A DNA stretch of 4,243 nucleotides from Qubevirus faecium, in sequence record FJ539133.1, one strand, 5' to 3'. The notes below the pieces were generated by a model that was given only the letters and a program-made list of their open reading frames with translations, had not been told where the DNA came from and searched no databases. The position numbers and the translations under genes are program-made. Of the stretch, positions 2,405 through 4,243 are shown piece by piece. Numbering within the stretch: the stretch's first letter is position 1; each line of letters begins with the position of its first letter.

Positions 2405-2424
2405 TAGCATGTCTAAGACAGCTA
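2405..2424 (+). promoter_or_regulatory. Replicase translational operator hairpin (coat-protein binding site spanning the replicase start codon)
   Basis: TAGCATGTCTAAGACAGCTA folds as an 8-bp stem (2405-2408 and 2410-2413 paired with 2417-2424), with a bulged A at 2409 (the A of the AUG) and a 3-nt loop UAA (2414-2416). The geometry and sequence match the Qbeta operator AUGCAUGUCUAAGACAGCAU. Confidence 0.7.
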
Positions 2425-4139
2425 GTCACAAGAAGAAAATTACTCAAGCATTGAGTAAGGTCGACATCAACTTTGAAGACGACATCCATATGTCTATTGC
2501 CAATGACCTCTTTGAGGCCTACGGCATTGCACCTCTTGCGTCGGCGGAGCAGTGTATCAGCACTCCGTTCCCTGACACTTCAATGGACGCTGATGCATTT
2601 CGCATCCATTACCTGCGTTCAGAGATCCTTAGCAAGTTCAGTGCGCACCCTCTCGGTATTGATACCGAAGCGGCCGCCTGGGAAAAGTTCCTGGCTGCCG
2701 AGGAGGGTTGTAGACAAACCAACGAACGTCTCACTAAGGTTAAGTACCATGATAATTCCATTTTGTCATGGGGCGAGCGTGTTATTCACACTGCTCGTCG
2801 AAAAATACTTAAACTGATCGGTGAGACTGTCCCGCTGGGGGATGTGGCGTTGCGCGCCCGATTTTCGGGAGGCGCTACGACCTCGGTTAACCGTTTACAC
2901 GGTCACCCGTCGTGGAAGCATGCCTGTCCGCAGGATGTAACCAAACGTGCACTGAAATACCTAATGGCCTATAAAAAGGCCTGTGGTGACGTCGTTGATT
3001 TACGCGTCAATGAGGTGCGCACTTCAAATAAAGCAGTCACTGTTCCAAAGAACAGCAAAACTGATCGTTGCATTGCCATCGAGCCCGGCTGGAATATGTT
3101 TTTCCAGTTAGGCGTAGGTGCTGTGCTCCGCGATAGGTTGCGCCTTTGGCAGATTGATCTTAATGACCAATCTGTTAATCAGCGCCTCGCACGCGATGCG
3201 TCGCAGTTGGACCATTTGGCCACTGTCGACTTATCAGCAGCAAGTGATTCGATAAGCTTACGGCTTGTTGAATTGCTAATGCCGCCTGCTTGGTTTGATC
3301 TCCTGACCGATCTCCGATCGGACCAGGGTGTCCTGCCAGATGGGCGTGTCGTTACTTACGAGAAAATATCCTCCATGGGTAATGGCTACACTTTCGAGCT
3401 GGAGTCGCTAATCTTTGCGGCCCTAGCCAGGAGTGTGTGCGAGTTGTTGGACCTTGACCAGTCAACCGTCAGCGTGTACGGTGATGATATAATCATCGAC
3501 TCACGTGCCGCTGATGTCCTGATGGCGGTTTTTGAGTATGTTGGGTTCACGCCTAACAGAAAGAAGACTTTCATTAAGGGCCCCTTTAGAGAGTCGTGCG
3601 GTAAGCACTGGCACTCCGGGGTTGACGTAACGCCCTTTTACATACGCCGCCCAATCCGTTGCCTAGCCGACATGATACTTGTTTTAAACAGTATATATCG
3701 GTGGGGCACGATTGACGGGGTGTGGGATCCTAGAGTACTGCCTGTGTACCAGAAGTACGTGAAGCTGCTACCAAGAGATTGGCGGCGCAACACTATACCT
3801 GATGGTTACGGTGACGGTGCTCTCGTCGGATTGGCCACGACTAACCCATTCGTTATCGTCCGGAATTATTCCAGATGGTATCCTGTGTTGGTTGAGGTCC
3901 AGAGGGATGCTAAGCGTCACGAGTTTGGCAGTTACTTATATGCCTTGCTGCGTGACCGCGAAGCACGTTACAATCCCTTCCTGCGTACTGCAGATGGGAG
4001 TGGGTTTGATGAAACACCGCTAGCTACTAGCCTTCGTCGCAAGACAGGTCGGTACAAAGTGGCGTGGATTCAGGACAGTGCCTTCATCCGGCCCCCTTAT
4101 TTTATTAAGGGAATTCCCGAGGTGAAGCTTGCGAGCTAG
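2409..4139 (+). CDS. rep: RNA-dependent RNA polymerase (replicase beta subunit)
   Basis: 576-aa ORF, ATG start, TAG stop. Contains the D-x4-D motif A (DLSAASD, 3228..3248) and the catalytic YGDD (3477..3488). The N-terminus MSKTASHKKKITQALSKVDINFEDD and much of the sequence are Qbeta/SP replicase-like; the length equals what I recall for the SP-group replicase. Confidence 0.95.
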   Translation: MSKTASHKKKITQALSKVDINFEDDIHMSIANDLFEAYGIAPLASAEQCISTPFPDTSMDADAFRIHYLRSEILSKFSAHPLGIDTEAAAWEKFLAAEEGCRQTNERLTKVKYHDNSILSWGERVIHTARRKILKLIGETVPLGDVALRARFSGGATTSVNRLHGHPSWKHACPQDVTKRALKYLMAYKKACGDVVDLRVNEVRTSNKAVTVPKNSKTDRCIAIEPGWNMFFQLGVGAVLRDRLRLWQIDLNDQSVNQRLARDASQLDHLATVDLSAASDSISLRLVELLMPPAWFDLLTDLRSDQGVLPDGRVVTYEKISSMGNGYTFELESLIFAALARSVCELLDLDQSTVSVYGDDIIIDSRAADVLMAVFEYVGFTPNRKKTFIKGPFRESCGKHWHSGVDVTPFYIRRPIRCLADMILVLNSIYRWGTIDGVWDPRVLPVYQKYVKLLPRDWRRNTIPDGYGDGALVGLATTNPFVIVRNYSRWYPVLVEVQRDAKRHEFGSYLYALLRDREARYNPFLRTADGSGFDETPLATSLRRKTGRYKVAWIQDSAFIRPPYFIKGIPEVKLAS

Positions 4140-4178
4140 ACACTAGCTCGTAATGGGAAGGGGCCTCTTTGAGGTCCC

Positions 4179-4198
4179 GGAAGGAGAAAGAAAGAAAA
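4179..4198 (+). other. 20-nt all-purine A-rich tract in the 3' UTR (candidate Hfq/host-factor binding site)
   Basis: GGAAGGAGAAAGAAAGAAAA contains no pyrimidine across 20 nt. Hfq, the host factor of Qbeta replicase, binds A-rich/ARN-type tracts near the 3' end of Qbeta RNA. Confidence 0.4.
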
Positions 4199-4213
4199 CT
4201 CCCTCCTGCGAGG

Positions 4214-4243
4214 GTGGGCTCTGCTTTGCCCACTCTCCTCCCA
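4214..4243 (+). promoter_or_regulatory. 3'-terminal hairpin plus single-stranded CUCUCCUCCCA tail (replicase initiation site)
   Basis: GTGGGC (4214-4219) is complementary to GCCCAC (4228-4233), with an 8-nt loop TCTGCTTT. The genome ends in ...CTCCTCCCA, the canonical levivirus 3' end; the final A is non-templated in Qbeta. Confidence 0.65.

Follow-up and report, generated by a model that had tools for sequence, protein, structure and literature searches.

The all-purine tract in the 3' untranslated region of a Qubevirus faecium genome is the 5' arm and loop of hairpin V, a candidate docking platform for Hfq

The sequence analyzed here, referred to below as the window, is the complete 4243-nt genome of Qubevirus faecium (FJ539133.1), a previously deposited sequence whose replicase matches NCBI protein ACT66756.1 exactly. 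Megablast places the window among the NL95-like members of the group IV alloleviviruses, with NL95 itself as the best match (90.8% identity), followed by HB-P22 (83.8%) and SP (~80%). Its genes and 3' untranslated region (UTR) are arranged as follows:

53-1378: maturation protein gene
1397-1795: coat protein gene, with a read-through extension
2409-4139: replicase gene, with its stop codon at 4137-4139
4140-4243: 3' UTR, 104 nt

The features described below were followed through a group IV set consisting of NL95, HB-P22, BR1, BR8, SP, FI and two Logan contigs; variability figures refer to seven group IV genomes, and stem covariation to seven distinct sequences in which the changes represent two lineage events. 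A search of IMG/VR for group IV relatives returned SP and FI alone, and metagenome scans for further natural relatives found none; contigs from Logan and JGI added two variants to group IV as well as five lineages outside it. A further 78 distant levivirus contigs from IMG/VR were excluded because their 3' ends are incomplete and the ORF heuristic is unreliable for them.

Past the replicase stop codon, within the 3' UTR, lies the tract GGAAGGAGAAAGAAAGAAAA (4179-4198, or -65 to -46 from the 3' end), which is composed of 13 A and 7 G without a single pyrimidine, exactly the 20-nt, A-rich, pyrimidine-free run that had been picked out by a sequence-only reading of this DNA. It is the longest purine run of the 4243-nt genome, the runner-up measuring 13 nt; when the sequence was shuffled by mononucleotide, 0.16% of the results contained a run of at least 20 nt; first-order Markov simulations gave one in 0.03% of cases, and the analytical expectation is ~0.0017 runs. 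The second-longest run, GAAGGGAGAGAAA at 503-515 in the maturation gene, reaches 16 nt in relatives; together with the pyrimidine run TCTTCTCCT downstream of it at 526-534, it looks like a conserved hairpin.

The 3'-terminal 124 nt fold with an MFE of -63.4 kcal/mol (z = -4.8) into five structural elements, encountered in the order R1, ld IX, U2, V, U1, ld IX. These elements, together with the presumed long-range partner of U1, are:

4129-4153, plus strand: hairpin R1, the last of the replicase gene, with an 11-bp stem and the loop ACA, holding the TAG at 4137-4139 (MFE fold and RNAalifold)
4154-4158, plus strand: 5' strand of ld IX, UGGGA, which pairs with the last 5 nt and closes the 3' domain (MFE fold; invariant among relatives)
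4160-4178, plus strand: hairpin U2, G+C-rich, with an 8-bp stem, the loop UUU and three covarying pairs (MFE fold and RNAalifold)
4179-4186, plus strand: 5' arm of hairpin V, GGAAGGAG, the first 8 nt of the tract, with A4182 mismatched with C4203
4187-4198, plus strand: apical loop of hairpin V, AAAGAAAGAAAA, the last 12 nt of the tract and the candidate Hfq docking platform
4199-4206, plus strand: 3' arm of hairpin V, CUCCCUCC, covarying with 4179-4181
4210-4237, plus strand: terminal hairpin U1, with a 10-bp stem and the loop UCUGCUUU (4220-4227) bearing the conserved UGCUU (MFE fold and RNAalifold)
4239-4243, plus strand: 3' strand of ld IX, UCCCA, sequestering the 3' end (P(unpaired) ~0 for 4239-4242)
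3030-3036, plus strand: AAAGCAG, presumed pseudoknot partner of the U1 loop at 4221-4227, ~1190 nt upstream

This layout corresponds to that of all Leviviridae, in which ld IX closes a 3' domain holding U1, U2 and V (PMC3561173, summarising Beekwilder et al. 1995). In Qbeta, the homolog of the ld IX 5' strand spans 4124-4129 and pairs with the last six nt (PMC8880383, PMC3561173), and the conserved UGCUU loop on U1 forms an essential pseudoknot with a site ~1200 nt upstream (PMC3561173). All 13 allolevivirus genomes compared have AAAGCAG at the homologous site, and in group IV it falls within a 20-nt invariant run (3027-3046). The R1 stem carries compensatory changes in three pairs, and the terminal 11 nt, CUCUCCUCCCA, are almost entirely paired, in U1 and ld IX. 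In FI (4184b, 4095-4130), the TAG within R1 is replaced by AAG and the replicase extends by ~30 nt, into U2, up to a TGA. Rfam 15 covariance models gave zero matches against the whole window at E values up to 1, and the levivirus 3' domain is evidently absent from that release.

The tract is not a free single strand: positions 4179-4186 form one arm of a stem and positions 4187-4198 the loop of hairpin V. The sequence-only reading had set the tract just upstream of the 3'-terminal hairpins; more precisely, it is itself the 5' arm and loop of the second-to-last of them. In stem V, GGA.GGAG (4179-4186) pairs with CUCC.UCC (4199-4206) through seven pairs, with 98% of cells paired, and three of the seven pairs (alignment columns 60/87, 61/86 and 62/85) show compensatory double changes in two lineages, namely G-C to A-U and A-U to G-C in the SP clade and G-C to A-U in FI; slid controls give at most two double-changed pairs over the whole structure. 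In six group IV genomes the hairpin V fold is the MFE structure or no more than ~1.4 kcal/mol above it; the fold is ~9 kcal/mol better than any that leaves the tract unpaired, stays constant in 300-, 700- and 1300-nt contexts, and is also the RNAalifold consensus. Taken in isolation, hairpin V is not stabler than shuffled sequences (z = -1.6). Its 12-nt loop is A at 10 of 12 positions and has a P(unpaired) of 0.8-1.0. The A4182.C4203 mismatch is conserved, and is displaced by one pair in FI. Hairpin V has been described as carrying a "large, adenine-rich loop" in MS2, Qbeta, SP and AP205 (PMC3561173), and it is the agreement of the computed fold with this description that identifies the tract as part of an element already described for SP/NL95-type phages. 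The structure also bears on the AGGAG within the tract, which does not qualify as a Shine-Dalgarno sequence or ribosome-binding site: beyond the tract just 45 nt are left before the 3' end, with no ORF downstream, and the GGAG of the tract is paired with CUCC in stem V.

Conservation of the tract in relatives had been proposed as a check on its significance, and the outcome depends on the lineage. In every available group IV relative the tract lies equally far from the 3' end, with an invariant core GAGAAAGAAAG(A/G)AAA that reaches GGAGAAAG… in all but FI, and the two natural variants from Logan retain it next to a U2 that differs. Group III phages (Qbeta, MX1, M11 and others) are without it. 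Among the seven group IV genomes, only one of the 12 columns of the V loop is variable, as against 63% of columns in U2 and 66% of third codon positions, an invariance with P ~5e-5 relative to the third-position rate and 0.01 relative to the rest of the UTR. The SP reference (X07489) has G at its position 4228 where the other group IV genomes, including SP_2, the one further SP isolate retrieved, have A (AAAGGAAA vs AAAGAAAA); this G is the sole V-loop variant seen in group IV. The longest invariant stretches in the seven genomes lie elsewhere, at 4062-4096 (35 nt) and 2907-2938 (32 nt), both within the replicase gene, where an RNA-level constraint is suggested by the conservation of synonymous sites as well.

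Outside group IV, the architecture is retained and the loop sequence is not. Qbeta-type genomes have, at the homologous place, an A/U-rich hairpin with the loop AUAAAUUA in Qbeta and CAAACUUAAA in MX1, each followed by a small tetraloop helix. All five other read-through-bearing lineages (46-61% replicase identity) keep the architecture, and their V loops are A/U-rich and 8-13 nt long in four cases and U-rich (UAUUCCUUUAU) in one, the allolevivirus-like L107-L110. GA and AP205 have an A-rich loop in the hairpin directly before U1, and MS2 has a purine-rich GAAGA loop in the hairpin two before U1. On the sequences compared, an all-purine V loop is specific to group IV. One contig of the U-rich lineage, L107 (JGI 3300066766), has its 3' end joined straight to its 5' end at ~3540-3560 (…CCCCUCC followed directly by GGGGUAGGG…), which may be a head-to-tail assembly or replication product; it gives the complete termini of this 46%-identity lineage.

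The sequence-only reading had further proposed the tract as a site for Hfq, and two of its premises are documented: Hfq is needed on the Qbeta plus strand, where it helps the replicase to gain access to the 3' end (PMC8956599, PMC6071253), and it binds A-rich or ARN-containing single-stranded RNA (PMC3936774, PMC3710371). The distal face of Escherichia coli Hfq accepts A-rich (A-R-N or A-A-N) single strands, (AAG)5 among them, and its R site has been argued to prefer A (PMC3936774). In the predicted fold, the V loop is the sole long A-rich single strand near the 3' end. A distal-face site calls for an unpaired stretch with no fewer than 3-4 A-R-N triplets in succession, or A-A-N in the strict sense. 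The tract contains four consecutive ARN triplets at 4182-4193, and three consecutive triplets lie within the loop at 4189-4197, so that the loop alone offers three and the tract four if the stem opens; consecutive AAN triplets number only two. Runs of four ARN triplets occur three times in the genome (two besides the tract), against ~0.7 expected. One of them, AAGAACAGCAAA at 3048-3059, starts 12 nt downstream of 3030-3036 and is coding-constrained (PKNSKTD motif). The repeat in the tract is AAAG, whose period of 4 matches the 3-nt register of Hfq only partly.

We favor, tentatively and with a probability of about 0.4, Hfq docking on the V loop, since this mechanism fits the position, composition and conservation of the loop. 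Hairpin V would present a single-stranded A-rich platform ~45 nt from the 3' end, on which an Hfq hexamer would dock, probably by the distal face that recognizes A-R-N. From this position next to U1 and ld IX, the protein would work as a chaperone to loosen the buried 3' end, and it might also bridge that end to internal replicase sites; the loosened end would then allow the replicase to begin minus-strand synthesis. In Qbeta-type phages, the A/U-rich loop of the homologous hairpin would serve equally. In Qbeta itself, RNase T1 would release the 26 nt from -63 to -38, made up of the V loop, the 3' arm of the hairpin and the short helix, as one intact product, and Senear and Steitz in 1976 reportedly recovered an oligonucleotide from -63 to -38 bound to host factor and/or S1. 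Against Hfq stand the lineage with a U-rich V loop, the only partial fit of the AAAG repeat to the Hfq register, the fact that runs of four ARN triplets are not rare, and the ordinary stability of the isolated hairpin. MS2, moreover, reportedly replicates normally without Hfq (Su and colleagues, 1997); as an A-rich V loop is also present in MS2, GA and AP205, it may serve an older function independent of Hfq. A literature search on Hfq dependence found it documented for Qbeta and returned nothing for SP, NL95 or FI. A preprint on ApeA that mentions Hfq proved to have no relation to this 3' region.

The strongest competitor, to which we assign a lower though still appreciable probability, builds on such an Hfq-independent function: the adenines of the V loop would dock in the helices of the junction, in A-minor fashion, or touch the replicase, and so keep the 3' end, together with U1 and the pseudoknot, arranged as initiation requires. 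Consistent with such a role, a large A-rich loop at this place is general among single-stranded RNA phages (PMC3561173), some of which are not known to use Hfq, the Qbeta 3' UTR forms a compact multi-way junction (PMC8880383), and the invariance of the V loop equals that of the U1 loop, whose RNA-RNA role is proven. The loops of the different lineages (AAAGAAAGAAAA, AUAAAUUA, CAAACUUAAA and UAUUCCUUUAU) have, however, diverged completely, which argues against one specific tertiary receptor, and a search of the genome found no Watson-Crick partner of at least 8 bp for the loop, the 7-bp matches touching the stem part only. A contact in the virion, in which a coat dimer or the maturation (A2) protein would bind the loop for packaging or infectivity, seems to us improbable. 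Hairpin V is possibly a maturation-protein site in MS2 (PMC3561173), and the Qbeta 3' UTR junction as a whole rests against Mat and coat dimers (PMC8880383), but the contacts reported for the Qbeta virion are U1 with Mat, U2 with a coat dimer and R1 with an internal coat dimer, V not being listed, and the older MS2 protection data have been re-interpreted (PMC8880383). The same list, having no contact for V, would leave the hairpin free for a role in replication. We consider it very improbable that the selected feature lies instead on the minus strand, where the complementary hairpin would expose, at 46-65 nt from the 5' end of that strand, the U/C-rich loop UUUUCUUUCUUU as a contact for S1 or replicase or as an aid in separating product from template. 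The isolated hairpin is indeed more stable on the minus strand (-12.5 kcal/mol) than on the plus strand (-8.1 kcal/mol), a gain of ~4.4 kcal/mol that arises because the A.C mismatch becomes a U.G pair, and the mirrored minus-strand domain has z = -3.9; nonetheless, these data give no sign of a 5'-proximal requirement, and minus-strand initiation is independent of S1 and Hfq (PMC4176380).

A different set of readings gives the tract a pairing partner other than the 3' arm of V, beginning with the suggestion in the sequence-only reading that it base-pairs with the terminal CTCTCCTCC. Such pairing is disfavored: it has zero compensatory changes and costs 8-15 kcal/mol, CUCCCUCC is the partner of the first part of the tract instead, and, with the tail CUCUCCUCC taken up by U1 and ld IX, tract-tail pairing is unsupported. 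In its more general form, GGAAGGAGA, the 5' part of the tract, would pair with the terminal CUCUCCUCC, or stem V would interconvert with a CCCUC/GAGGG helix and in this way regulate how accessible the 3' end is. Positions 4179-4187 and 4234-4242 can form eight pairs around a single mismatch, and CCCUC (4201-4205) with GAGGG (4210-4214) can be drawn in all group IV sequences, resembling the short extra helix of Qbeta. Yet compensatory changes are absent from both pairings, the GA-to-AG swap of the tract has its exact counterpart in a UC-to-CU swap at 4204-4205 and not in the tail, both alternatives are 8-17 kcal/mol less stable, the CCCUC/GAGGG hairpin requires a 1-nt slip in SP and FI, and U1 and ld IX still form in five of six genomes when the tract is forced single-stranded in predicted folds. 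We therefore regard a switch of this kind as highly doubtful. Two further arrangements were rejected: a fully single-stranded tract combined with the CCCUC/GAGGG hairpin pairs only 88.6% of cells, needs slips and is 11-17 kcal/mol worse, and a triple helix of the homopurine-homopyrimidine stem V with the tail, which scores 8/8 for the SP-clade arm GAGAGGAG, scores 6/8 for GGAAGGAG here and is not conserved. Just as doubtful, in our estimate, is a bistable latch operated by Hfq, in which capture of the whole strand would unzip stem V, release CUCCCUCC to pair with GAGGG (4210-4214), cut the U1 stem down from 10 to 5 bp and leave CUCUC of the tail open to the replicase. The 20-nt all-purine strand would approximate the 18 nt that fill the six distal-face sites of one Hfq hexamer, and the conserved A.C mismatch would leave the plus-strand stem weak enough to open. 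The persistence of U1 and ld IX with the tract open also qualifies the preferred docking of Hfq on the V loop, since, on this prediction, binding alone would leave the 3' end sequestered.

In other respects this is routine annotation, the purine run having been assigned to a known conserved hairpin. The group IV V loop, a clean 12-nt purine sequence and the most ARN-like of the lineages compared, would be a convenient substrate for studying, at the nucleotide level, how Hfq recognizes Qbeta-type plus strands and frees their buried 3' end.

Three known systems come closest to the element. The tract resembles the Hfq distal-face sites of the rpoS, fhlA and glmS leaders (PMC3936774) in being a purine run rich in A, single-stranded in its loop, with successive ARN triplets, and differs from them in its period of 4 rather than 3, in being presented as a closed 12-nt loop instead of an open leader, and in having no part in sRNA pairing. 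With hairpin V of Qbeta, of the two hairpins the one with measured protein binding, the group IV hairpin shares its place in the domain, its stability (-8.0 kcal/mol in Qbeta vs -8.1 kcal/mol here) and an A-rich unpaired loop adjoining a sequestered 3' end. The two have no alignable sequence, BLAST alignment being limited to the last 34 nt, and the Qbeta loop is A/U-rich with an extra short helix after it, whereas the group IV loop is all-purine and lacks that helix, in keeping with the description of the SP 3' domain as having three hairpins only and that of Qbeta as having one additional short helix (PMC3561173). The closest counterpart is hairpin V (V2) of SP, as drawn by Beekwilder et al. 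1995 and summarised by Rumnieks and Tars in 2012 (PMC3561173), which matches the element described here in its position between U2 and U1 within ld IX, in its three-hairpin domain and in its large adenine-rich loop. The loop sequence itself is identical to that of NL95, HB-P22, BR1, BR8 and one SP isolate, and, apart from the covarying GA/AG and UC/CU swap in stem V, the hairpin differs from that of the SP clade in nothing essential.
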